From positions 1 to 22,711 of the forward strand of contig CAZMCX010000004.1 in the NCBI GenBank assembly GCA_964565125.1: a DNA stretch of 22,711 nt. Reading direction: 5' to 3'. This stretch comes from an uncultured archaeon. Its GTDB lineage: Archaea > Iainarchaeota > Iainarchaeia > Iainarchaeales > 0-14-0-20-30-16. The translations under genes and the position numbers were made by a program. The notes beneath the pieces are model-generated. The model worked only from the letters and a program-made list of their open reading frames with translations. It was not told the DNA's origin and ran no database searches. Shown here piece by piece: positions 62 through 18,929 of the stretch; position 1 is the stretch's first letter; each line of letters starts with the position of its first letter.

Positions 62-660
62 CATTTCATCTCCTTTTTACACAACAAATAAACACTTACA
101 GGTATTTTTATTATTTCACTACATTTAGAACACTTAAAATCAACTATATTAATATCCTCTTTTATTTTATTATTTAGCGGAAAGCCACATTTACAAACAA
201 ATCCTTTTACTTTTGCAGGATTGCCAACAACCAAAGAATATGGTGGCACATCCTTTGTTACAACTGCGCCAGCACCAACAACACAATATTCTCCCAATGT
301 AATCCCACAAACAATAACTGCACTTGCACCTATTGAAACTCCATCTTCAACAATAGTTTTTGTTAATCTGGAATCATCCCAATGCTCTGCACGAGGATAC
401 AAATCATTTGTAAAAGTAGCATTTGGCCCAACAAAAACATTATTACCTATAATAACACCATTATAAACATTAACATTATTTTGGAATTTACACTTGTCCC
501 CAATTACTGCACCTGAATCAATATATACATCTTTACCAACTATACAATTAGCGCCTAACTTTGACCCTGATCTTACATGTGCAAAATGCCAAATCTTTGT
601 GTTTTTTCCTATTTTTGCACCATCTTCACATATTGCAGTAGGGTGTACAAAATAATCCAT
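61..660 (-). CDS. Left-handed beta-helix (hexapeptide-repeat) sugar N-acetyltransferase, WbpD/WlbB-like, with a C-terminal 4-Cys tail
   Basis: 199-aa ORF with repeated hexapeptide pattern (IGKNTKI, LGANCIV, IGDKCKF, IGNNVFV, IGASAVI, LGEYCVV, GAGAVV). Ends in CKCG-x21-CSKC. An SD-like GAGGT lies upstream of the ATG at 660. Operon context is nucleotide-sugar enzymes. Confidence 0.85.
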   Translation of the reverse strand: MDYFVHPTAICEDGAKIGKNTKIWHFAHVRSGSKLGANCIVGKDVYIDSGAVIGDKCKFQNNVNVYNGVIIGNNVFVGPNATFTNDLYPRAEHWDDSRLTKTIVEDGVSIGASAVIVCGITLGEYCVVGAGAVVTKDVPPYSLVVGNPAKVKGFVCKCGFPLNNKIKEDINIVDFKCSKCSEIIKIPVSVYLLCKKEMK

Positions 661-671
661 TATCTCAACCT

Positions 672-1904
672 CTATTCTCCTAAAAAATTCTTTGGATCCA
701 ATATAATTTTTTTATCTTTCAATGATTTTAATTTTGAATAATATTTTTGTATTTTATTAACTACAACAATCAAATCACAAAACTCTAATTGGTCCTCAGT
801 TTGTATTTCTAAGTCCAGTTCTTTTTTTGCCAAATTTTTGTCTAGGATGTCATCAAAACCTACAACTTTATACCCCAAATCTTTTAATTTTTTAACCAGT
901 GGAATAGATCTTGCATAAGCCAAAGAATTAACGCCTTCACGATACCCCAGGCCAACAATACCAATTGTCTTTATCTTATTATTTAATGATAAGCGCAATA
1001 TTTTACTTATAAAAAAATCAACCATAGAGTCATTTACTTCTCTTGCACTTGACATTAAATTAAAATGCACATCATTCTGAAACCCGTGATAAATCACAAA
1101 CCAGGGATAAACTGGAATACAATGTCCTGAAACACCCAAGCCAGGATCTAATAAATTACAATATTGATGCTTTGCGCCGGCTTTCATATGATTGTAATCA
1201 ACATCATAAAAATCACATACCTTATAAAGTTCATTTGCAATACCCACATTTATATCACGATATACCCCTTCAACAACTTTTATTAACTCTGCTTCTCTGA
1301 TTGTTTTTGCAGGATATATAATACCACAAAACTTAGCATATAACGCTTTTACTGCATTTTCTGAATTCTTTTCATAACCCGAAACAACCTTAGGAAACTC
1401 TTTGTAACGAGAAATAGAATAACCAGTCATTATCCTTTCTGGAGAATAAGCTAAATAAAAATCTCTATCTGCGCTTAGTCCTGAGTTTTTTTCCAATATT
1501 GTTTTGAAACGGGTTTCTGTTGTCTTAGGTGGAACAGTTGTTTCCAAAACCACCAAATCTCCTTTTTTTAATTGCTTTCCAACAGCAGTATAAGCATTAT
1601 CTAAAATACTAAAATCTGGCACTTTGTTTTCAGAAATAAACAAAGGCACAATAATTATGTAAGTATTTACTTTGTCTTTCAATTCTTGTAAATTATTTGT
1701 AAAAAACAGATTTTTATTTACTCTTGCAGCCAATATTTCTTTAACACCTGGCTCTTCAGGAATTGGATTTATTTTATTTGTCAATGATTCTATTTTCTTA
1801 TTATCTATATCATAACCGTAGGTTTCAATACCAGCATTCGCAATAACACAGGCCAATGGTAACCCTGCATGCCCCAAACCAACAACACAAACCTTATAAT
1901 CCAT
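672..1904 (-). CDS. Nucleotide-sugar 6-dehydrogenase (UDP-glucose/GDP-mannose dehydrogenase family; WbpA/WecC-like)
   Basis: N-terminal Rossmann motif VCVVGLGHAGLP and catalytic-Cys signature PGLGVSGHCIPVYP. The ORF track starts at GTG 1913. I prefer ATG 1904, which is preceded by GTGATTTTA (SD-like). Confidence 0.85.
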   Translation of the reverse strand: MDYKVCVVGLGHAGLPLACVIANAGIETYGYDIDNKKIESLTNKINPIPEEPGVKEILAARVNKNLFFTNNLQELKDKVNTYIIIVPLFISENKVPDFSILDNAYTAVGKQLKKGDLVVLETTVPPKTTETRFKTILEKNSGLSADRDFYLAYSPERIMTGYSISRYKEFPKVVSGYEKNSENAVKALYAKFCGIIYPAKTIREAELIKVVEGVYRDINVGIANELYKVCDFYDVDYNHMKAGAKHQYCNLLDPGLGVSGHCIPVYPWFVIYHGFQNDVHFNLMSSAREVNDSMVDFFISKILRLSLNNKIKTIGIVGLGYREGVNSLAYARSIPLVKKLKDLGYKVVGFDDILDKNLAKKELDLEIQTEDQLEFCDLIVVVNKIQKYYSKLKSLKDKKIILDPKNFLGE

Positions 1905-7179: not shown

Positions 7180-9141
7180 TTACTTTTTCGTTAATACTTT
7201 TAACTCTTTATCCGTTTCTTCTTGCACCTTTGCTATCAGATCCTTTCTAAATTCTGGCTTAAACAAGTGGGCATAAAGCTTGTGTGATTTAAGGTACTCT
7301 TCAACAGGCAAAACTTGCTTTGGTTTGTAAGTTATTTTGTATTTCCCGTTCTCTATTTCATACAAAGGCCAGAAGTTTGTCTCTGTTGCAAGCCTAGCAA
7401 CATCATAAGTCTTAAAGCTTGGGAACTTCCACCCATAATTACAAGGCATCAGAACGCTCAAGAATTTTGGGCCTTCATAACTAAAGGCTTTCTTTATTTT
7501 ATAGATAAAATCATCCAAATATGCTGGGTTTGCTTGTGCAGCATAAGGTATATTATGCGCTGCCACAATAGGCATTATGTCTTTTCTTTTCTGGGCTTTT
7601 CCAGAGCTAACTGTCCCCGCAGGAGTAGTAGTTGTACTTGCCAAGTAAGGAGTTGATCCACTTCTTTGGCCGCCCGTGTTCGAGTAGGCTGCATTGTCAT
7701 ATAGCACATACAAAATATCGTGTCCTCTTTCAAGCATTCCTGACAAAGCTTGTAAACCTATGTCAACACTATTCATATTCAAACTTATTCGTCCATCTTT
7801 TTCAATAATTAATATATGGTTCTTTTTTAATTCAGGACAAAAAACCTTTCCGTTATATTTATATGAAGAAATATTTTTTCGTCTGAGATTTGCTAACATA
7901 GTTGGTTTATAATTGCTTGCAGAAATAGAATATTCTAATCTTCCTTTTCTTTTATTTTCATCAAGATGAACTCTATAGCCTAATTTTAATGCAATTTCTA
8001 TAAAATCATTTTTCAATTTTTCTGAGATTGTACTATACCTATAAATCTTGGAGTTTTTGTAATCATCTATGTGCCCATCGCCCAGGATTAAAGAATCAAA
8101 TAAAAACTTAAGTTGTTTAGGGGGCAAGTTTTTGAATTCTTTTGGTATAAATTTGTCTTTGGCTTTCCCAAACTGTTTTAAATAACTCCATAACTGTTGA
8201 TTACTAATAATAAACCTATCTTTACTATACCAAAAATTAAAAGGCAATTTTGATAAACAAGCCTTTATTTTATCCACATTTTTTTTATTAGTTTGAGCTA
8301 TATAAACACCATATTTTTCTCTTTTAATAGATCTCTGCGATATATGCCCCTCAGAAATCCAATACCCAAAAAATTCCAACCAATTAGCCATTAATATTTT
8401 TTTAAACGGTTTTTTGTTAGCACTAATCTTATGATAAGAAACAGACGGAACTTCAAAATAGTTTTTATTCTTCCCCGCCCAGTTCAGGTTTCCAGTAATA
8501 ATATTAATCTTATCGCTTCGGCCATAATCAAGTAAACTATTTGCCTTAATAATATCCACTTTTTTTGTAAATTTATTATAAACAGGAACATTATGATTTA
8601 AAGAAACATCAAAATGAACAAAATTGTGATTTACTTTAACTATTAAATTATTATAATCAACGATATGCATTTTGATAACTGGAACAGGCTCTATATTCAA
8701 AGTTACAGGATTTACTGAAAATATTTTGTCCCCAATTTTTAAATCTTCTACATTTTTTAGTCCTTCTTCAGTCAATATTTTTGTTTGTGGAACATAACAA
8801 CCACCATCACCTGCAAAAACAACGAACTTGTACTTCTTTTTCAACTCTCCACGCTTTTGCCTTGCTACATACGCCCTCTCTACCCCCGCAAGGGTTGATG
8901 CGGAGTTTTCAAAGGCATTATGTATACACGAAACCCCAAAGCTTGTGTGTGGCCAAATTGTACTAGTAACTTCCAAGCACCCGGTAGCAATAGATACCAC
9001 AGGTTCATAGCCATCAGGCACATTGCCCAAAACAGTTCTAACTATTGGAGGTATAAAGCACCCTGAACAGGTCCTATGCCCTGGACCAAAACCCTCTTTT
9101 CCTTTTTCCCAAATTTTCTGTAAATCATATTTTTCGGCCAT
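7180..9141 (-). CDS. porB: 2-oxoacid (pyruvate-type):ferredoxin oxidoreductase beta subunit (ThDP-binding), interrupted by an intein
   Basis: Extein motifs GHRTCSGC, VVFAGDGG...SVDIGLQALSG, YDNAAYSNTGGQRSGSTP. Last gene of a gamma-delta-alpha-beta operon. The track start is TTG 9159. ATG 9141 is preceded by AAAGTGATTTTT. Extein length is about 310 aa once the 343-aa insert is removed. Confidence 0.9.
   Translation of the reverse strand: MAEKYDLQKIWEKGKEGFGPGHRTCSGCFIPPIVRTVLGNVPDGYEPVVSIATGCLEVTSTIWPHTSFGVSCIHNAFENSASTLAGVERAYVARQKRGELKKKYKFVVFAGDGGCYVPQTKILTEEGLKNVEDLKIGDKIFSVNPVTLNIEPVPVIKMHIVDYNNLIVKVNHNFVHFDVSLNHNVPVYNKFTKKVDIIKANSLLDYGRSDKINIITGNLNWAGKNKNYFEVPSVSYHKISANKKPFKKILMANWLEFFGYWISEGHISQRSIKREKYGVYIAQTNKKNVDKIKACLSKLPFNFWYSKDRFIISNQQLWSYLKQFGKAKDKFIPKEFKNLPPKQLKFLFDSLILGDGHIDDYKNSKIYRYSTISEKLKNDFIEIALKLGYRVHLDENKRKGRLEYSISASNYKPTMLANLRRKNISSYKYNGKVFCPELKKNHILIIEKDGRISLNMNSVDIGLQALSGMLERGHDILYVLYDNAAYSNTGGQRSGSTPYLASTTTTPAGTVSSGKAQKRKDIMPIVAAHNIPYAAQANPAYLDDFIYKIKKAFSYEGPKFLSVLMPCNYGWKFPSFKTYDVARLATETNFWPLYEIENGKYKITYKPKQVLPVEEYLKSHKLYAHLFKPEFRKDLIAKVQEETDKELKVLTKK
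7771..8799 (-). mobile_element. Intein with LAGLIDADG homing-endonuclease domain (343 aa) inside the beta subunit
   Basis: Starts with Cys (TGT 8799-8797) right after GDGG. Ends ...SLNMN (AAT 7773-7771), followed by Ser +1 (AGT 7770-7768). Contains SLNH (block-B-like), LEFFGYWISEGHI and LFDSLILGDGHI (two LAGLIDADG motifs) and VFCPELKKNHILII (block-F-like). Confidence 0.85.
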
Positions 9142-9155
9142 AAAAATCACTTTAT

Positions 9156-10295
9156 TCAATTCTTCAAGTCTTTCCTAAGCCCATAGAACTGGAACTTCTT
9201 TTGCTTTCCTTTCAAGAACTTTTTAACTAGGTCTTTGGCTTCTTCTATTCCAAAGTCTCTTCCGCCAATTCCATAAACAACATTATAAAACTCTTTTCCC
9301 ATGCCTTGGAACTCCAAGCCCATAGGCCCAAACTCCGCGCCGTGGCTTATTGCCCTGTCTAAAACAATCACTTTTTTCCCTTTTAGTCCAGCCCTAAGTT
9401 CAGTGTAAGGAAACGGCCTATAAACTCTTGGCCTCAAGCACCCAACCTTCTTTCCATTTTTTCTCAATTCCTGACAAGCAAGTTCAATTGCTTGATAAGA
9501 AGACCCCATTGATACAAAAACTGTATTTGCGTCTTTTAATCCAAAAGACTCATAAAGGCCATATCCTCTTTTTGAGATCTTTTCAAATCCTTTTTGTATT
9601 TTAAGTATTGACTTAGAAGATTCTGCTAAATCTTTCCATTGCCGTTCTCTTACCTCAATATTAGAATCCATTAGAGCAACATTTCCAAAAGAGATTTTGG
9701 AATCTAACATATTCGCCCATTTTAGCTTTTTGCCAACAAAATCCTTTGCCTGTTTAGTAGACAAAGTATCAATCACCTGCTCTCCGTGAGTAGTATAGAA
9801 TCCATCCATCATAACCATTACAGGGATCTTTATATCCTCTGTAATTTTTACTGCCATCAAAGTGGTATCATAAACTTCCTGCACATCTTTACAATAAATC
9901 TGGACCCAACCTGAGTCTCTTGCCAAAAAACTATCTGAATAATCACAATGCAAAAGAAGAGGTGCACTAAGTCCTCTATTTCCCACAACCATTGTCATTG
10001 GTAATCTTAATCCCGCAGCAATGTAGATTACTTCGATCATATAAGCTAGGCCTTGTGACGCGGTAGCAGTAAACACTCTGGCACCGGCAGCACTTGCACC
10101 AATACATGCAGACATTGCACTGTGCTCTGATTCCGCAAGAATATTTTCAGTAGTAACTTTTCCGTCAGCAACATACTTTGAGAAAGTTTCGATAATTTGT
10201 GTTTGAGGAGTAATAGGATACGACACACAAACATCTGGGTTTATCTGCATCATTGCGTATGAAACAGCATAGTTTCCGTTTATTAAAGTCCTCAT
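9156..10295 (-). CDS. porA: 2-oxoacid:ferredoxin oxidoreductase alpha subunit
   Basis: The N-terminus LINGNYAVSYAMMQINPDVCVSYPITPQT is typical of PorA/VorA/KorA. 379 aa. Operon position is between delta and beta. Confidence 0.9.
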   Translation of the reverse strand: MRTLINGNYAVSYAMMQINPDVCVSYPITPQTQIIETFSKYVADGKVTTENILAESEHSAMSACIGASAAGARVFTATASQGLAYMIEVIYIAAGLRLPMTMVVGNRGLSAPLLLHCDYSDSFLARDSGWVQIYCKDVQEVYDTTLMAVKITEDIKIPVMVMMDGFYTTHGEQVIDTLSTKQAKDFVGKKLKWANMLDSKISFGNVALMDSNIEVRERQWKDLAESSKSILKIQKGFEKISKRGYGLYESFGLKDANTVFVSMGSSYQAIELACQELRKNGKKVGCLRPRVYRPFPYTELRAGLKGKKVIVLDRAISHGAEFGPMGLEFQGMGKEFYNVVYGIGGRDFGIEEAKDLVKKFLKGKQKKFQFYGLRKDLKN

Positions 10296-11356: not shown

Positions 11357-12004
11357 TTATTCTTTTCTAACAATTGTTATTGTCCAGCCCCTCTTACCAT
11401 AACCCTTGTAATATTCCTCAATTTTAAAGAACTGCGATAAAAGATTAGTCATATTTAATCTATCTATCATCTGGGTATAAGGTTTAGTTTGATCTTTCTT
11501 TTCTTTTATTTTTTTGTCATCATCATAATCCGCAGTATTTGACGAATACACTAAACCATATCCACCTTTCTCTAAAATGTCAGACATTTTTTCTACAGCA
11601 TATGGGGCTATTGAAGAATCAAACTGATTCAAAAAAGATCCCGCAACCAAACCATGGAATTTCTCCTCTGGCTCCCATTCTAAAAAACAGACGTTGTAGA
11701 ATTTTGCTTTAGGGCTATTTTCTTGGGCATATTTTATCATTTCTTTAGATACATCAATACAGGACACATTAAAGTCATACTTAAAGTGTTCAGTAAGTAT
11801 GAATGAGTTTAATCCAACTCCGCACCCTAAGTCTGCAATTCTTGCTCCTTTTCCAAAACTAGAGTTGACCTTTTCAGCAAAAGGCTTTATTACCTTGTAT
11901 TGATTATCTACGAAATTTACCCATCTTGAGTTATAGTCATCGGCTAACAAATCATAGTACTCCACCAATTGTTTTTGGATCTTACTTGCTTGTTTCCCAC
12001 GCAT
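11357..12004 (-). CDS. Class I SAM-dependent methyltransferase
   Basis: Motif I IADLGCGVGLNS. 215 aa. A TATA-like CCCTTTATAAA (12026-12036) lies 22-32 nt upstream of the ATG, which suggests a leaderless mRNA. Confidence 0.8.
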   Translation of the reverse strand: MRGKQASKIQKQLVEYYDLLADDYNSRWVNFVDNQYKVIKPFAEKVNSSFGKGARIADLGCGVGLNSFILTEHFKYDFNVSCIDVSKEMIKYAQENSPKAKFYNVCFLEWEPEEKFHGLVAGSFLNQFDSSIAPYAVEKMSDILEKGGYGLVYSSNTADYDDDKKIKEKKDQTKPYTQMIDRLNMTNLLSQFFKIEEYYKGYGKRGWTITIVRKE

Positions 12005-12025
12005 GTTTATAATATAATTTCAACA

Positions 12026-12036
12026 TTTATAAAGGG
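12026..12036 (-). promoter_or_regulatory. TATA-like element for the methyltransferase gene
   Basis: Minus sense CCCTTTATAAA, located 22-32 nt upstream of ATG 12004. Confidence 0.4.
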
Positions 12037-12084
12037 CGTGGTTTTATGTATAGAAATTAGAAAAATTTGCACACAAAAACCAAA

Positions 12085-12113
12085 AAAATAATTCTAGAAA
12101 AAGAAAAATAAGT
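12085..12113 (-). terminator. Oligo-U tracts (archaeal-type terminator) after the candidate ncRNA
   Basis: The minus sense immediately after the terminal helix reads ACUUAUUUUUCUUUUUCUAGAAUUAUUUUUUUGGUUUUU. Confidence 0.4.
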
Positions 12114-12310
12114 GGCAGGTAAAACGGTATACACAAGAATATCTGGGACTACGGATATATACTCCCGGAATTGACCGCGCAAAAGACAGCAGATAAAATC
12201 TGCCCCAACATACAGCAAAGCACATGGCATGAAGCCAGAACGCTTGTTTGCATATCCTCACTGCGCCGTTTGCAAATCTCACGGAGAGATTTATAGAATA
12301 CCTACCGTAT
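12105..12310 (-). ncRNA. Unassigned structured RNA candidate (~200 nt), in the position downstream of 23S where a 5S rRNA would be expected. Its identity is not established.
   Basis: A G+C-rich island sits in AT-rich intergenic DNA.
- The ends pair: GGTAGGT (RC of 12302-12308) with ACCTGCC (RC of 12114-12120).
- Internal perfect hairpins: AAATCTC/GAGATTT and GCAGAT/ATCTGC.
- The helix GCGCAG/TTGCGC and the terminal helix each contain a G.U pair only when read on the minus strand.
- A TATA box lies upstream and oligo-U tracts lie downstream.
- The overlapping 62-aa ORF is Cys/Phe/Arg-rich and looks spurious. Confidence 0.4.
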
Positions 12311-12326
12311 AATTATATATAATACA

Positions 12327-12339
12327 TATTTATAAAACT
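12327..12339 (-). promoter_or_regulatory. TATA box (minus sense AGTTTTATAAATA) about 25-30 nt upstream of the candidate ncRNA 5' end
   Basis: The spacing to the first base of the terminal helix (about 12308) fits archaeal TATA-to-TSS distance. Confidence 0.4.
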
Positions 12340-12422
12340 TTGCCACGCATACTGGCCTAAAACAACAGTAGTCAGATTTGTATTAAGAAACCAAAAAATA
12401 ACTAAAAAAAAGAATAACTTTT

Positions 12423-12446
12423 TAGTTAGCATAGGCAAGTAAAGTG
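12423..12446. repeat. 3' arm of the 23S rRNA processing stem (perfect 24-nt inverted repeat with 15773-15796)
   Basis: Plus-strand tagttagcataggcaagtaaagtg is the exact reverse complement of cactttacttgcctatgctaacta at 15773-15796. Confidence 0.8.
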
Positions 12447-12497
12447 CTAAAGATTGCTAAAAGTTTTTAGCTAAGATTCTAAACTGAATCTCTATTT

Positions 12498-12533
12498 GTG
12501 TAGTCTTTGATTTTGTGTGTAGTCTTTGATTTT
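12498..12533. repeat. Tandem direct repeat, 2 x 17 nt (gtgtagtctttgatttt) separated by gt, abutting the 23S 3' end
   Basis: 12498-12514 and 12517-12533 are identical. A related gtgtagtct occurs inside the 23S intron (13636-13644). Confidence 0.8.
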
Positions 12534-15500
12534 TAAAGGTCCTCTTATGCTATTAGTACTGGTCAGCTGAATATCTCGCCGAAGCTCGATACTTACACTT
12601 CCAGCCTATCAACCCAGTCTTCTACTGGCGCATTAGTCTGTCCGAAGACAGAGTGACGATCTATTTTTAGGGGGGACTTCAAGCTTAGATGCTTTCAGCT
12701 TTTATTCCTTACGGCGTGGCTACCCAGCGCTGCCCTCCCGGACAACTGGTAGACTAGAGGCCGCGACCTTTTGTTCCTTTCGTACTAGAAAGATCTTCCC
12801 TTCAGATCATCAACAGTCCCAACAGATAGTAAACAAACTGGCTCGCACCGTTCTTAACCCAGCTCACGTACGGCTTTAATGAGTTAACCCCTCCACCCTT
12901 GGCTGCTTATGCACAGCCAGGATGCCATGAGCCGACAACGAGGTAGCAAACCGCGGGGTCGATATGTACTCTTGCCCGCGACAACCCAGTTACCCCCAGG
13001 GTAGCTTCACTATCAGACCAGACTGCCACCAAAGCAGTACTGACGATCATTAAGCCCTTCTTTCGAATCTGCATTCCTTGTTTTGCAGAACACAGTCAAG
13101 CCTGCTTTTGCCCTTACACTCGACAGGATGTTCCTAACACCCTTGAGCAGACCTTTGGGTTCCCCTGATACCTTTTCAGGGGAGTACCGCCCCAGCCAAA
13201 CCACCAACTCTGCAGGTGTCCCCCTTTCGGGGTGAGTCTTAGAATTTCTGAAGGTTAGTGTCCCATTGACGTCTCCACAGTTCCTGACGAAACTGCTTCG
13301 AAGACTACTAACTACGCTGCACATCAAAAAGTCTAAAACAGCAACAGATTGTGGTAAAGTTCCGTGGGGACTTCACCTCCCATTGAGACTCCGTGGCATA
13401 TTCACCACGCAGTGGGTTCGTCGAGTTATAGTTAGGGACAGTGGGAATCTCGTTATTCCATTAATGCAAGTCGGCATTAAACCGACAAGGTATTACGCTC
13501 ATACTTGTTACTTCGCCCCCAAATAGGGTTACTTACCATCATATGTGATGGCGAGCTACTATTTCTAATAGCTTCTATATGTCACCATATAGATCGGACT
13601 ATATCTTCATAGCAAAGTTGTTTTGCTATGTTTGGCGTGTAGTCTCTGGGGATTCTTCTTTATTTCTAAAGAAGCCTTTCCTGCTGATTGTCTCTCATGA
13701 ACAGATTTTTAGGGTTCACTACCCTTTCACAAGAATAGTTGCCTACCATTCACTCAAAGAGAGTTTCCAGCATATAGCCAAATTTTATTAAGGCTACGAT
13801 TATAACCTTAAGAGCCTCAGAGTTAGGCCCGCTCTTTACCAGCGCTTAGACCCCTTGAAAAGGGTTTTCACGTACTGGCAGTGAGCAGAAGTCGGCCCCT
13901 ATACTAATCTTTTCAGACTCGCAGGGACCTACGTTTTTGATAAACAGTCGGACTCCCCTTGTTAGTGCCACCTACAGTTTACACAACTGCAGGCACCCCT
14001 TATACCAAAGATGCGGGGCTATTTTGCCGAATTCCCTTAACTATATTCTCTCGATACGCCTTGGCCTTCTCAGCCAGGGGCACCTTTCCCGGTTCTCGGT
14101 ACGGTCTGATGGAATCCTTATGATCTTTCTTTTCATGGTTACCAGGTGTGAAGAACAGCTTTCGCCCCATCACCTCTTAAAGCCCTTCTCGTCATTATAA
14201 CTCTCCAAGCTTATATTAGGATTGGATATTCTGGGAAGAATACGTTCTCTAACCCAATAAGTCAAAAGATCATCTATTGTTGCCAAATTGTATCCACCAG
14301 GTACAGGAATATGAACCTGTTTCCCTTTCCCCCTACTCGTGTTACGATAGGGGTTAGGATCGACTAACCCTTAGCTGATGATCAGTGCTAAGGAACCCTA
14401 GCCCTTTCAGCGGAGAGGGTTCTCACCTCTCATAGCTATTACTACCGCTAGGATCAATATTCCATATAGGTCCACAAGAACTCACGCCCTTGCTTCTGTC
14501 CTATAAGAAAACCTTCTTACAAGATATTACATACAATGCAATCTGCATGGTATCGGTGGTCTGTTTTAGCCCCGTATATTTTTGGTGCCCTCACTCTCGG
14601 AAGGTGAGTTGTTACACACTCTTTAAATGATAGCTACTTCTGAGCTTACATTCCCTCTGTCTTAGAGTAAAGACGCCCTTTATTTGCACTTAACAGACAC
14701 TTTGGGACCTTAACCACGCGCAGGGTTGTTTCCCTTTCGGACCGGAAGCTTACCCCCCGGATCCCAACTTCAACCTTCTTAGACAAATGGCGATTCGGAG
14801 TTTAGCAAAAAAGCCGGGGATCTCTCCCCAATACTTTTTGATCAGTGCTCTACCCACCATTTCGTCTCAGGTCAAGCTAACCTTAGAGCTATTTCAGAAG
14901 GAGCCTGCTATCACCAAGTTCGCATAGATTATCGCTCCCACTCCCAGGTCACCTAAACAGTTAGTCTAGAACTAGAAACGGACCTCCACCCCTTTGTAAA
15001 AGGGTTTCATCCTGCCCAGGAGTAAATCACTTGGTTTCAGGTCTGGTATCTGTGACTAAAGACGGATTAGCATCCTTGTCCTCACTAAAAGTTGCGACAA
15101 CTCGGTTTCCCTACGCCTACGAGGTTAAACCCCTTAAGCTTGCCACAGACACAAATTCCCTAGCCCGTGCTTCGTGACGAACGACGTAACACTATACAGA
15201 GCGCTTCGTTACCTTAGGCGCTCTACCTTTCGTGCCGCGTCCACCTATTACCATTTGGTTTCAGGTGCTTTTAACTCCCTACCAAGGGTACTTTTCAACT
15301 TTCCCTCACGGTACTCGTTCGCTATCGGTCTTGGAAGAATGTTTAAGATTGGGGGTTGGTACCCCCCGTATTCATACGCAAATGCCAATGCGTATTACTC
15401 TCGGTTACTATCAGATCTTTCTCTTATATAACTAAGGGGCTATCACCCGCTATGGCGCTTCTTTCCAGAAGTCTTCGTCTTTAAGAGTTAAGACCCTAAC

Positions 15501-15772
15501 TAGACCACACCACATCTCTCTCTAATTTCTTAGAGAGATTCAGTTTGTCTTCTGCCCTTTTCCTTCGCCAGTACTGGGGGCATCGCGATTGCTTTCTTTT
15601 CCTGCAGGTACTAAGATGCTTCAATTCCCTGCGTCTCCTCCCCTTTCGGGGTAATTCGGGTATCTCTGGTTCTAAGGTTGCGTGCACCTCGCCAGAGCTT
15701 TTCGCAGCTTGCCACGCCCTTCTTCGGCTTCCAAGCCAAGTCATCCACCAAATGGTTTACTAGGACCCTTAA
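12533..15772 (-). rRNA. rrl: 23S (LSU) rRNA, archaeal, containing one ~305-nt intron
   Basis: Conserved LSU blocks read on the minus strand:
- 5' GGTGGATGACTTGGCTTGGAAGCCGAAGAAGGGCGTGGCAAGCTGCGAAAAGC
- CCGACTGTTTATCAAAAAC
- GCGTAATACCTTGTCGGTTTAATGCCGACTTGCATTAATGG
- a 3'-terminal GCTGACCAGTACTAATAGCATAAGAGG
Helix 1 pairs TTAAGGGTCC (15772-15763) with GGACCTTTAA (12542-12533). Ends are accurate to a few nt. Confidence 0.93.
13500..13804 (-). other. ORF-less intron in 23S rRNA domain IV, between the H69 hairpin and the AGCG...CCUUG segment (about E. coli U1931/A1932)
   Basis: Upstream exon ends ...AGCGGGCCTAACTCTGAGGCTCTTAAGGT. Downstream exon resumes (A)GCGTAATACCTTGTCGG. Joining them restores the universally conserved ...CCUAAGGUAGCGxAAUxCCUUGUCGG block. 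The intervening AT-rich ~305 nt has no LSU counterpart and accounts for the excess rRNA length. Boundaries are accurate to about 3 nt. Confidence 0.7.
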
Positions 15773-15884: not shown

Positions 15885-16049
15885 TGGACTCAGCGGGAAT
15901 TGAACCCGCAGCCTCGGCCTTACCCGCAGCCTTCTTAAGAAAAGATCTCAGGAATCCATGCCATTGAAAATGGCATTTTTTCCGTAAACGCTTTTTCCTA
16001 AAAAGGGTTTGTTGCAAGGGCCGCGCTCTCCCAGTTGAGCTATGAGCCC
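15885..16049 (-). tRNA. tRNA-Ala (anticodon UGC) with a 92-nt intron at the canonical 37/38 position (intron 15921-16012); CCA not encoded
   Basis: Exons fold as a cloverleaf:
- acceptor GGGCTCA/TGAGTCC with the G3:U70 alanine identity pair
- D arm GCTC-AACTGGGA-GAGC
- anticodon arm CGGCC-CTTGCAA-GGCCG
- T arm GCGGG-TTCAATT-CCCGC
- discriminator A
It lies between 16S and 23S, as is usual in archaeal rRNA operons. Confidence 0.9.
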
Positions 16050-16081: not shown

Positions 16082-17566
16082 GAAGGAGGTGATCCGTCCG
16101 CAGGTTCCCCTACGGACACCTTGTTACAACTTAGCCCTCCTCACGAAACAAGAAATCGAACTACCATTGAAGTAGCCCTCATTCTAGCCTCATTCGGGTG
16201 GCTTGATGGGCGGTGTGTGTAAGAAGCAGGGACACATTCACCGCGTGATAGTGACACGCGATTACTAGGGATTCCAGCTTCATGAGAATGAGTTACAATC
16301 CTCAATCCGAACCTAGACCGAGTTTCACGGATTACCTCCCTCTCTCGAGTTCGATACCCATTGTCTCGGCCAATGTATGCCGCGTGTTGCCCAGAAGATT
16401 CGGGTCATACAGACCTATCGTCGCCCACCCCTTCCTCTAGATTGCTCCAGCTGTCCTTTCATAGTGCGCCCTTCCGAAGAAAGACTAGCAAAAAAAAGCA
16501 TGGGTCTCGCCCGTTGCCTAAGTTAATAGGACACCTCACGGCACGAGCTGACGATGGCCATACAGCACCTCTCAGCGTGTCAGGTAACCCCATCAGAGTG
16601 ACCATCATCCTGCTGTCGCCCCTGGTAAGTTTCTTTGGCGTTGTATCCGATTAAACCGCAGCATCCACCCCTTGTGGTGCTTCCCCGCCAATTCCTTTAA
16701 GTTTCAGCCTTGCGACTATACTCCTCAGGCAGCAGACTTAACGGCTTCCCTACGGCACCCCGTAAATCCAAGATTAACGGGACACCTAGTCTGCAACGTT
16801 TACGGCTGGGACTAACCGGGTATCTAATCCGGGTCGCTCCCCCAGCTTTCATCCCTCACCGTCAGGTCCGTTCTCGTAAGTCGCCTTCGCTACTGGTGGT
16901 CCTCTATGGATTATCACATTTCACCGCTACCCATAAAATACCACTTACGTCTCCCGGCCTCTAGTCAAGTAGTATTCTCTGCAATTCAACAAGTTAAGCT
17001 TGTTAATTTCACAAAGAACACACTAAACAGGCTACGGATGTTTTAGGCCCAATATCCACGAGTACCACTTGTGGAGCACGTATTACCGCGGCGGCTGGCA
17101 CGTGTCTTTCCCTCCACTTATTCGCCAAGTTATTTACACTTGACAAAAGCTAGTAAAACTAGCACTAGGAATCCCCCTATCGCGCTTTCGCGCATTGTAG
17201 AATTTTCGCGCCTGCTGCACCCCGTAGGGCTAGGGGCCTTTTCTCAGTCCCCTTCTCCGGGCTCCCCCTTGCAGGGCCCGTACGGATCTCAGGCTTGGTG
17301 GGCCATTACCCCGCCAACAACCTAATCCGGCGCAGACCCATCCTAAGGCGCCAGCAAGAAAAGGCTTGCTGACTTTAATAAAAAGAGCATCCCAGCTTCA
17401 ATTTACTATGAGGTATTACTCTCAGTTTCCCGAGCTTAACCTCTCCTCAGGGTAGGTTGTCCACGTGTTACTGAGCCGTTCGCCGAAGGTATCCATATAC
17501 CTTCTAGACTTGCATGGCTTAGTCGAATTCCTATAGCAGTACTCTCCAGCGGGATCAGCTGGAATC
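16082..17566 (-). rRNA. rrs: 16S (SSU) rRNA, archaeal
   Basis: 5' ATTCCAGCTGATCCCGCTGGAG. Archaeal-type GTGCCAGCCGCCGCGGTAATAC (RC of about 17079-17100). 3' AAGTTGTAACAAGGTGTCCGTAGGGGAACCTGCGGACGGATCACCTCCT. Length about 1485 nt, with no insertion apparent. Confidence 0.95.
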
Positions 17567-17873: not shown

Positions 17874-18920
17874 TTATTCCGCAACAACCCTATTTCTTCC
17901 CTGCTCTTTTGCCTTGTATAATCTTTCATCCGCCAAAGACACAAGAAGATCTGGACTTACATCCTCAGTTTCATTAACACTTGCAACCCCGATACTAATA
18001 GTTACCTTGCCTACAGAAAACTCAGAATTATCAATTGCGAACCTAAGCCTTTCACCTACTACCTTTGCACCTTCTTTGTCACAATCTAACAGAACAATAA
18101 ATTCTTCTCCACCCCAACGACAAAGATAATCATGATTTCTTCCGGGCCTGCCCCTCAAACTACTAAACAAAATCTTTGCCAACTTTCTAAGAACTACATC
18201 CCCATTAAGATGGCCATAGGTATCGTTGATATTCTTGAAATGGTCTATATCTATTATTAATAAAGAGAACACGGCTTTTGTTTTTTTGTAATCTTCCAGT
18301 TTGTCATTAAAGTTTATTTCAAACGATCTTCGGATCGAAACCTTTGTCAAAGGATCCAATTGTTTGTCTATTACCGAAGCTATAAACCGCCCAATAGATG
18401 CAAAGTAAATTGCTGAGATCAAAAGCATTGTCTTTATGTCTCCTTCATACTTTAATTTTTTTAGTAAAAGATTCTTGCCTTTTATTATCACAATCCCAAT
18501 AACAGAATCATTGAATACCAACGGAACCAACAAAGTGCTTTTATCAAAAACAGAATCAATTAGAACTTTAGTATACCTAAAACTATGTGGAACCATGTTA
18601 TAAGCATAAATTATATTTTTCTTGTCTTTTGGATAAAAATATATTATCTCTTTGTCTTCAATTGATTTTAGAATATAATAATTCTCTGGAGTTATCTGGT
18701 TCAGATCTATCTCCTCAAGATGACTTTCTGTTTTTGTCCTATTTGCCAAACACACAAGGGTGTCTTTATCAAGTAAATAAACTCCCGCGGTTTCCACATT
18801 TTTTAGAGTATCCATTATTAACTCCAAAACCCTACTTAAATTTGTTTCATATTTAGAACTTAAGAGTGTACTCATGGTATAAAGTTCTTTTGCAAGGGCC
18901 CAGCCCCAAACTTTTTGCAT
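17874..18920 (-). CDS. GAF-like sensor + GGDEF-domain diguanylate cyclase, with active-site and I-site motifs intact
   Basis: IIDIDHFKNINDTYGHLNGDVVL, RNHD-YLCRW-GGEEF (GGEEF at nt 18113-18099, RxxD five residues upstream), and LYKAKEQGRNRV. The N-terminal ~160 aa are GAF-like. The track start is GTG 18929. ATG 18920 is preceded by AGGTG, which overlaps the transporter TAG. Confidence 0.9.
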   Translation of the reverse strand: MQKVWGWALAKELYTMSTLLSSKYETNLSRVLELIMDTLKNVETAGVYLLDKDTLVCLANRTKTESHLEEIDLNQITPENYYILKSIEDKEIIYFYPKDKKNIIYAYNMVPHSFRYTKVLIDSVFDKSTLLVPLVFNDSVIGIVIIKGKNLLLKKLKYEGDIKTMLLISAIYFASIGRFIASVIDKQLDPLTKVSIRRSFEINFNDKLEDYKKTKAVFSLLIIDIDHFKNINDTYGHLNGDVVLRKLAKILFSSLRGRPGRNHDYLCRWGGEEFIVLLDCDKEGAKVVGERLRFAIDNSEFSVGKVTISIGVASVNETEDVSPDLLVSLADERLYKAKEQGRNRVVAE

Positions 18921-18929
18921 TGATGACAC

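Follow-up and report, generated by a model that had tools for sequence, protein, structure and literature searches.

A candidate new family of doubly pseudoknotted structured RNAs in Iainarchaeota, seen behind the 23S rRNA gene of an uncultured archaeon

Which RNA, if any, is encoded in the G+C-rich island that lies behind the 23S rRNA gene of an uncultured archaeon of the Iainarchaeota (GTDB lineage Archaea; Iainarchaeota; Iainarchaeia; Iainarchaeales; 0-14-0-20-30-16)? The island is located on the minus strand of the window, that is, the whole stretch of 22,711 nucleotides (nt) at positions 1 to 22,711 of contig CAZMCX010000004.1 (NCBI GenBank assembly GCA_964565125.1), to which the coordinates given below refer unless a homologous locus is named. 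An earlier note on this DNA had proposed, for the place where a 5S rRNA would be expected, a stand-alone structured RNA gene of the minus strand with its own TATA box and oligo-U terminator, and had left three options for its identity, namely a divergent or expanded 5S rRNA, a minimal RNase P-like RNA, or a new RNA family. Our analyses support the prediction of a stand-alone gene, and among the three options the evidence favors the new family. The island probably encodes a stable structured RNA that is transcribed independently, acts in trans, and belongs to a family that is not in Rfam 15 and has so far been found only in Iainarchaeota (Diapherotrites, DPANN).

The predicted RNA has a length of about 195 nt (12111-12308, minus strand), as delimited by an island of conservation and by the match of a covariance model described below. 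Its 5′ end would lie near 12308-12306, and its 3′ end in a U-run just past 12111. A TATA box (TTTTATAAATA, 12337-12327, minus strand) is located 30 nt ahead of G12306 and presumably acts as the promoter of the RNA gene; in every homolog, a TATA element is present 28–30 nt ahead of the first helix. At the other end, four oligo-U runs (U5, U5, U7, and U5; 12072-12110, minus strand) form a putative archaeal terminator, at which transcription may end, and U-runs follow the last helix in all homologs. The G+C content of the RNA region (12306-12114) is 43%, compared to about 30% in the flanks. TATA box, U-runs, and G+C-rich island had all been pointed out before and were recovered at these positions. 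The minimum free energy on the minus strand is −65.4 kcal/mol (z = −3.1, equaled by none of 200 shuffled sequences), whereas z is −1.8 for the plus strand. The assignment to the minus strand is further corroborated by conserved G-U and U-G pairs, for example, the invariant U-G pair closing helix a (see below), which exist only on this strand.

Between the window and its sister species (L017, the metagenome-assembled genome Candidatus ainarchaeum sp. isolate STB_43, which is the closest named relative, with 95% identity over the 23S end and the element), the RNA is 96.5% identical. The corresponding values are 98.8% for the 23S end, 78% for the spacer from the 23S gene to the TATA box, 62% for the promoter region, 31% for the spacer between the RNA and a downstream methyltransferase gene (L017 has an insertion of about 300 bp there), and 87% for the methyltransferase coding sequence. 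Seven differences separate the two RNAs. Five of them are in single-stranded positions, and the remaining two, in the 3′ strand of helix b (G-U to G-C and U-A to U-G), keep the pairing. As these comparisons indicate, purifying selection acts on the RNA. Could the locus nevertheless lack an RNA gene and represent a chance G+C island, a relic, or a coding sequence? An open reading frame (ORF; 62 codons, 12094-12282) that starts with GTG does overlap the RNA region. However, it has no Pfam match, the homologs differ by indels of many lengths and show base-pair covariation instead of codon conservation, and the RNA is conserved better than the adjacent coding sequence. We regard the absence of an RNA gene as exceedingly improbable.

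Altogether, 15 distinct family members of about 135–325 nt, which fall into four clades, were found in genomes and metagenomes of Iainarchaeota (Diapherotrites). They were gathered by three independent routes, that is, as neighbors of the methyltransferase, by a DNA pattern scan, and as neighbors of a TrmB-family gene. On the first route, methyltransferase orthologs with 41–73% identity led to a related element in the upstream gap of 350–480 nt at five loci (L001, L004, L010, L012, and L028). On the second, the pattern GTTGRRRCRGATTYTATC-N(20-52)-(GN)AGYYYCAG was scanned against 185,579 species genomes, which resulted in three archaeal matches (L015, L017, and L018) and one chance bacterial match, and against JGI metagenomes, in which L019/L025 and L020 were new, known types were found again, and two further matches were due to chance. 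The chance matches (L016, L023, and L026) lie in bacterial coding regions and are not matched by the covariance model. No viral contig matched the pattern, and a viral or mobile origin was rejected. On the third route, orthologs of the TrmB-family protein encoded upstream of L019 yielded L030, L031, L033, and the divergent L034.

In clade A (the window, L017, L001, and L015), the RNA has a length of about 200 nt and follows the 23S gene. Clade B includes L004 (about 150 nt) and long forms of about 270–325 nt (L010, L012, L018, L020, L028, and L033), clade C consists of L019, L030, and L031 (about 175–205 nt), and clade D of L034 (about 170 nt). Each locus examined contains a single copy. In clades A and B, the methyltransferase gene is located downstream on the same strand, though the upstream genes differ: the 23S gene is the upstream neighbor in clade A only, and a gene for a TrmB-family regulator in clades B, C, and D. 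The methyltransferase gene is missing in L018 (where the other neighborhood is kept), L030, L031, and L034, and the RNA persists. Since the RNA is found without one or the other of these neighbors, the arrangement represents conserved synteny, and an obligatory pair of RNA and methyltransferase was rejected.

The structure was derived from complementarities spotted by eye, followed by extraction with fixed rules anchored on the motifs GUGA, UUGRRRC, and GYYYCAG, and by constrained folding of every member. The constrained folds have the same architecture in all members, including three sequences that were outside of the derivation of the model, with the elements in the order T5′ - [H1] - c5′ - A - GUGA - f5′ - (U)GC - e - a5′ - hp - c3′ - linker [d5′] - b5′ - f3′ - G-N-A - a3′ - b3′ - [d3′] - T3′. 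All positions of these elements are given for the minus strand. The terminal helix T is formed by GGUAGGUA (12299-12306) and UACCUGCC (12114-12121), with compensatory changes in L001 (GGUGGG/CCCACC), L015, L018, L030, and L034; it agrees with the terminal helix read earlier, GGUAGGU(A) at 12306-12299 with (U)ACCUGCC at 12121-12114. It is followed by hairpin H1 (AAAUCUC-UCCGU-GAGAUUU, 12274-12292), which clade A shares with part of clade C and which has compensatory changes in L001 and L015. In helix c, which differs in sequence in every lineage, GCAAA-C-GGCGC (12263-12273) pairs with GCUGUCUUUUGC (12179-12190), and in helix b, which lacks an internal loop, GGGAGUAU (12159-12166) pairs with AUAUUCUU (12135-12142). 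T, c, and b meet in a three-way junction. In clade A, a further helix d is formed by GCGGU (12174-12178) and ACCGU (12124-12128) in the constrained fold; it reads GCGG/CCGC in L001 and L015, and an analogous helix in L034 is GGAAAU/AUUUCC.

The arms c and b are tied to one another by two more helices. Helix f (6 bp) pairs the six nucleotides after GUGA (GGAUAU, 12252-12257) with AUAUCC (12153-12158), and helix a (7 bp) pairs the UUGRRRC motif (UUGGGGC, 12202-12208) with GUCCCAG (12143-12149). Thus, the 16 nt enclosed by helix b do not represent a true loop, but consist of the 3′ strand of f (6 nt), the G-N-A linker (GUA, 12150-12152, with G and A unchanged in 14 sequences), and the 3′ strand of a (7 nt). 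Helices f and a join the tips of the arms and cross both arms, and, because the strands follow each other in the order f5′, a5′, f3′, a3′, they also cross each other, which makes the fold a double pseudoknot. Strand tracing revealed two four-way junctions, one of f, e, a, and b and one of c, f, a, and hp, which have f and a in common. The far ends of f and a are linked by the three nucleotides of G-N-A, and therefore the two helices should lie side by side. Between the 5′ strands of f and a, the constrained folds place the variable hairpin e (12215-12251; about 25–50 nt, with a conserved GC at its 5′ base). Hairpin hp (AGAU-UUU-AUCU, 12191-12201), with the nearly invariant GAUUYUAU and a UYU loop, abuts the 5′ strand of a before it and the 3′ strand of c after it. 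The unpaired GUGA (12258-12261; AUGA in L034) is located where c, f, a, and hp meet, and its UGA is invariant.

Both hairpins described previously, AAAUCUC-UCCGU-GAGAUUU at 12292-12274 and (GC)AGAU-UUU-AUCU(GC) at 12201-12191, are part of this fold. In contrast, a helix GCGCAG/UUGCGC proposed in the earlier note was not upheld, as UUGC belongs to helix c, where its partner is GCAA, and GCGG pairs with CCG(U) to form helix d; a duplicated UGCAAAC turned out not to be conserved among the homologs. Three other structural interpretations were discarded. GUGA closes a hairpin like a GNRA tetraloop in L004 and L010 only and is unpaired at the junction in all other members. A tRNA-like acceptor stem was rejected for helix T, whose length ranges from 3 to 10 bp and which is internal in the long forms. 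Finally, the structure produced by unconstrained RNAalifold breaks hp in favor of spurious pairs, and the program cannot represent pseudoknots.

The pairing was quantified in helix digests that were N-padded to preserve the registers, with f, a, b, and hp anchored by rule and T and c extracted per sequence and hence fitted. For 11 sequences, 97.6% of the cells were paired, compared to 73% after shuffling, and for 14 sequences, including the three held out, the values were 96.9% and 71%. In both cases none of 500 shuffled sets reached the observed value, and controls with slid partners resulted in 33–46% paired cells. In a less fitted test, 15 real sequences were aligned to model R2, a covariance model that was built from clades B, C, and D only and contains the nested helices c, e, hp, and b; f and a were added afterwards as pseudoknots for the counting of pairs. 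In this alignment, 92.3% of the cells were paired, compared to 74.3% after shuffling (again reached by none of 500) and 38–46% with slid partners. Covariation across homologous loci, a check suggested in the earlier note, was thus found: the 15 loci are conserved, and 26 of the 37 pairs have changes on both sides.

Helices f and a lay outside of the structure of the model. Helix f was paired in 98.9% of the cells, with double changes in five of six pairs and the variants GGAUAU/AUAUCC, CGAUGU/ACAUCG, CAACUU/AAGUUG, CAGUUU/AAAUUG, CGACCU/AGGUUG, and CAAUAU/AUAUUG. Helix a was paired in 99.0%, and its middle three pairs covary as GGG/CCC, GAA/UUC, AAG/CUU, and AGA/UCU. The values were 94.2% for helix b (double changes in seven of eight pairs), 87.8% for the stem base of hairpin e (four of six pairs), and 82% for helix c on the R2 columns, where register slips occur (double changes in all six modeled pairs, and in 10 of 13 in the digest).

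With filters off, R2, which contains no clade A sequence, matches the window at 12122-12281 (minus strand) with 40.4 bits (E = 3.3e-6). On L001, L017, and L015 it scores 36–40 bits; the E values for clade A are about 1e-6 to 1e-5, and the next match in 37.5 kb has an E value of 1.5. The earlier model R1, which was based on the RNAalifold structure and lacked the nested helices derived by hand, ranked the same places first, with E values of only 0.2–1.1. Taken together, these results establish the family membership of the RNA, its fold, the selection on it, and the sequence geometry of an independent gene.

Is the RNA a member of a known family? A scan of 11950-12560 against Rfam 15 at E ≤ 10, an analysis that had also been proposed before, found no family on the RNA and only three chance-level matches to small nucleolar RNA or human immunodeficiency virus models outside of it. 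At the same threshold, no family matched the homologous regions of L004, L010, and L012, and at gathering score the RNA remained unmatched in about 150 kb of related loci (L001/L002/L004, L010/L012, 18 further loci, and L030/L031). In the literature on 5S rRNA, RNase P, or structured RNAs of DPANN and Iainarchaeota, we found no description of the RNA. The comparisons with single Rfam families given below refer to the window, L004, L010, and L012 at E ≤ 10, unless stated otherwise.

The location suggests a divergent, expanded 5S rRNA. In clade A, the 23S gene precedes the RNA on the same strand at a distance of about 225 nt, the Rfam scan detected no 5S rRNA across the whole window, the conservation is rRNA-like, and a terminal helix that meets two arms in a three-way junction, with a core of about 125–150 nt in clade B, resembles the 5S architecture. 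However, the 5S-like position is a property of clade A only; in clades B, C, and D the RNA gene is unlinked to rRNA genes and adjoins the TrmB-family gene. The 5S_rRNA model (RF00001) matched neither at E ≤ 10 nor, in any locus, at gathering score, and the signatures of loop C, loop E, and helix III are absent. The segment UUCCGGGAGUAU, which had been taken as 5S-like, comprises the linker and the 5′ strand of helix b and no 5S loop E; its stretch GGGAGUAU covaries with its partner (GGAAGCAU, UUGCACAU, AAGUUCAU, and others). In 5S rRNA the ends of the two arms point apart and carry the free loops C and D, whereas in the present RNA the tips are tied by the 13 covarying base pairs of f and a, two pseudoknot helices that have no counterpart in the open Y shape of 5S rRNA. 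In addition, the RNA gene has a putative promoter of its own, and the match of the 23S rRNA to the full archaeal model (2491 bits) does not suggest a remodeled 5S site. A 5S identity is therefore very unlikely.

The topology of the pseudoknot recalls the catalytic core of RNase P, and the RNA could be an extremely reduced and rewired RNase P RNA, that is, the catalytic subunit of the RNase P of Iainarchaeota, with f, e, and a as P2, P3, and P4 and G-N-A as J2/4. The strand order f5′-e-a5′ ... f3′-GNA-a3′ matches P2-P3-P4 ... P2′-J2/4-P4′, and both pairs of helices cross, a likeness of topology only. For RNase P this order was reconstructed from E. coli M1 RNA, and it provides a lead rather than a test. 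Further shared features are the 3′ strands on a short linker and the nature of a stand-alone stable RNA. The size is near that of minimal RNase P RNAs of about 200 nt, that is, type T in Pyrobaculum, and no RNase P RNA was seen in the roughly 190 kb examined. Against this identity, the models RNaseP_arch (RF00373) and RNaseP-T (RF02357) and other RNase P models did not match, and the RNA has neither CR-I (GNAANNUC) nor CR-V nor the bulged U of P4; its helix a, UUGRRRC/GYYYCAG, is free of bulges. The segment GAGGAUAU, which had been likened to CR-I, consists of the conserved GUGA and the 5′ strand of the covarying helix f, and the CR-V-like ACAAGCGUUCUGGCUUCA is located within the variable hairpin e, so that neither upholds a minimal RNase P-like RNA. 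The flanks also differ, as the 5′ strand of c pairs with its 3′ strand and the 3′ strand of b with its 5′ strand, and no P1 closes directly onto P2 and P4. S-domain, P5, and P15 are lacking, and only hp, the 3′ strand of c, the linker, and the 5′ strand of b (about 35 nt) are found between the 5′ strand of a and the 3′ strand of f. An ancestral size of about 150–200 nt was also counted against RNase P. Lastly, the linkers are 0–3 nt long, much shorter than the long J3/4 and J2/4 of RNase P, which implies the side-by-side arrangement of the helices. Altogether, we consider an RNase P identity unlikely.

A similar comparison can be made with the signal recognition particle (SRP). In a reduced SRP (7S) RNA, the T/c/b junction would correspond to helices 5, 6, and 8. 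A three-way junction with side-by-side arms touching at their tips is reminiscent of the SRP S domain, in which such arms are likewise in contact at the tips, and the long forms reach about 300 nt. However, Archaea_SRP (RF01857) did not match, and GNAR tetraloops and the internal-loop motif of helix 8 are missing (the loop of hp is UYU, and helix b has no internal loop), in agreement with the earlier remark that no SRP motif was visible. An Alu-like GUAGUCCCAG was also considered; its YYYCAG part pairs with UUGRRRC and forms no loop of Alu helix 4. An SRP identity appears highly improbable, also because the long 5′ domain is confined to one subclade.

This additional domain of about 150 nt is conserved in the long forms of clade B (2577-2745 in L010; also in L012, L018, L020, L028, and L033). 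It comprises three hairpins, a conserved loop of 17 nt (GCUUUUCUGUUNGCUAU), and the motif GAUGGUC, has no match in Rfam, and is predicted to be transcribed from the single upstream TATA element. The 3′ tail AUCUGCAC of the long forms may pair with GUGUA of the 5′ domain; L018 is devoid of both. In L004, a short, remnant-like hairpin region that ends in a U-run is found upstream. Because the long 5′ domain is confined to one subclade, it is probably derived.

The downstream gene raises the question of whether the RNA is a cis-regulatory leader, that is, an S-adenosylmethionine (SAM) or S-adenosylhomocysteine (SAH) riboswitch that controls the methyltransferase via the oligo-U terminator. The same-strand methyltransferase gene in clades A and B, in spite of the different upstream genes, the U-runs directly after helix T, and a compact pseudoknotted fold with a conserved, aptamer-like junction pocket are consistent with this idea. 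On the other hand, the RNA is kept without the methyltransferase in L018, L030, L031, and L034, an insertion of about 300 bp separates the two in L017, and SAM, SAH, and other riboswitch models did not match. Moreover, the methyltransferase gene has a TATA element of its own in every lineage, 26–29 nt ahead of the ATG. In the window, the promoter ACATAAAA-N9-TTTATA (12028-12049, minus strand) has a TATA that begins about 29 nt ahead of the ATG, and the distance is the same in L001, L015, L004, and L010. A TATA box 26–29 nt ahead of the ATG is the usual geometry of leaderless archaeal mRNAs, and therefore a leaderless mRNA is implied, which argues against the RNA as its 5′ untranslated region. 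A leader function is thus very improbable as well.

The sequence (CT)ACATAAAA-N9-TTTATA occurs before the methyltransferase gene in the window (12028-12049, minus strand), and further sites are found in L015 (3615-3638 and 3938-3961), L001 (1262-1285), and L002 (74-97). In L015 and L017 it also precedes the RNA gene, and in the window it is present at the methyltransferase promoter only. This distribution hints at a promoter-proximal element common to both genes.

Two further groups of RNAs invite comparison. Like HDV-like ribozymes, the RNA has two crossing helices of 6–7 bp and a small hairpin right after the second 5′ strand (f as P1, a as P2, and hp as P3). In contrast to them, the 3′ strand of c, the linker, and the 5′ strand of b intervene before the equivalent of the P1 3′ strand, P4 is missing, the equivalent of J4/2 is G-N-A without the catalytic C, GUGA is conserved upstream of "P1", and Rfam returned no match. 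Membership was rejected because of the intervening strands and the missing P4 and catalytic C. With the orphan bacterial noncoding RNAs of the type of raiA, OLE, and ROOL, the RNA shares the restriction to a lineage, the stand-alone gene, the intricate fold backed by covariation, and the location in an island of G+C content and conservation. However, those RNAs are bacterial and differently folded, whereas this one is archaeal (DPANN), and no relationship in sequence or in Rfam exists.

The window stems from an A+T-rich DPANN archaeon, and the Rfam scan located its rRNA operon on the minus strand, with the 16S rRNA gene at 16084-17565 and the 23S rRNA gene at 12533-15772. The 23S gene contains a group I intron (13575-13835, minus strand; Rfam 94.9 bits, E = 1e-23), and around this site the related 23S gene of L015 is interrupted by a different insertion of larger size. 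In the spacer between the 16S and 23S genes, a stretch of 165 nt (15885-16049, minus strand) matches tRNA from end to end (Rfam, 52 bits), and therefore presumably represents an intron-containing tRNA; it was not called by ARAGORN, which reported neither tRNA nor transfer-messenger RNA in the window. Directly 3′ of the 23S rRNA, AUCAAAGACUACACA is repeated twice in tandem (about 12500-12545, minus strand), as it is in L017, and this duplication may be part of a processing stem or trailer of the 23S rRNA. In L001, the end of the 23S gene and the RNA gene are separated by a called ORF of 171 amino acids without Pfam match (442-957, plus strand), where the window has only the spacer of about 225 nt. 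The GGDEF diguanylate-cyclase protein encoded next to the operon (351 amino acids, 17874-18929, minus strand; E = 4e-39) has a domain that is uncommon among Archaea.

Downstream of the RNA, the class I SAM-dependent methyltransferase (215 amino acids, 11357-12004, minus strand) is a frequent, non-obligatory neighbor outside of the RNA. Its Pfam and NCBIfam matches are generic, without an informative family or a solved relative, and a homolog elsewhere is annotated as Candidatus Diapherotrites. Genes for pyruvate:ferredoxin oxidoreductase also lie downstream. The gene of its thiamine pyrophosphate-binding (beta-like) subunit (7180-9159, minus strand) has a LAGLIDADG domain, and the ortholog in L017 is about 1 kb shorter there (window 7755-8801); the insertion is probably an intein. 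In clades B and D, a conserved gene for about 185–198 amino acids without Pfam family is located convergently downstream of the RNA/methyltransferase locus (10636-11199 in L004, 3633-4196 in L010, 953-1549 in L018, and 2527-3084 in L034), followed by genes for Glycos_transf_4 and STT3 (AglB-like) proteins.

What, then, could the RNA do? Its invariant nucleotides (UGA, GC, UG-UUG, GAUUYUAU, G-N-A, and CAG-AU) almost all line the two four-way junctions, and they probably form one conserved pocket that represents the functional site. This pocket may bind a protein partner or a ligand, or it may be a catalytic center. The RNA would act in trans, most plausibly within a ribonucleoprotein. In our working model, the lineage would have a housekeeping ribonucleoprotein of its own, with this RNA as its RNA subunit or scaffold, a suggestion based on the rRNA-like conservation, the putative strong promoter of the stable-RNA type, the single copy per locus, and the place behind the 23S gene in one clade.

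Several points weigh against the interpretation as a new trans-acting RNA. Apart from the fitting of T and c in the digests, the 15 sequences stem from a single phylum, and their kinship inflates the shuffle control, whereas relatedness affects neither the slid control nor the count of distinct pair types in each column. The transcription of the RNA, the transcript ends, and the roles of promoter and terminator are predicted from the sequence, and we infer the function of the pocket and the ribonucleoprotein. Moreover, the RNA may be a universal RNA that has diverged beyond recognition. According to a published report (PMC6380272), DPANN archaea possess RNase P proteins but lack HARP, so that some RNase P RNA must exist in these genomes, which keeps the RNase P identity at a low but appreciable probability.

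In a bolder version, the RNA would serve an unrecognized machine as its catalytic or core subunit, either as a new class of natural ribozyme or ribonucleoprotein or as a radically rewired stand-in for a universal RNA in a DPANN lineage (a substitute for 5S rRNA, or an RNase P RNA that lacks CR-I and CR-V). We view this as a rather unlikely case; if true, for an equivalent of RNase P RNA or 5S rRNA, the invariant core of those universal RNAs would need revision. To our knowledge, few classes of stand-alone structured RNAs are known in Archaea beyond the universal and guide RNAs, and none has been described as specific for DPANN. The fold, which is backed by covariation in 15 sequences, comprises seven or eight helices, two of which are crossing pseudoknot helices enclosed by the two four-way junctions. 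A complexity of this degree is usually seen in ribozymes, riboswitch aptamers, and ribonucleoprotein cores. For the annotation of Iainarchaeota genomes and the search for relatives in other DPANN groups, the covariance model is ready to use. The RNA is a concrete candidate, open to testing, for a new RNA function in organisms whose genomes are very reduced.

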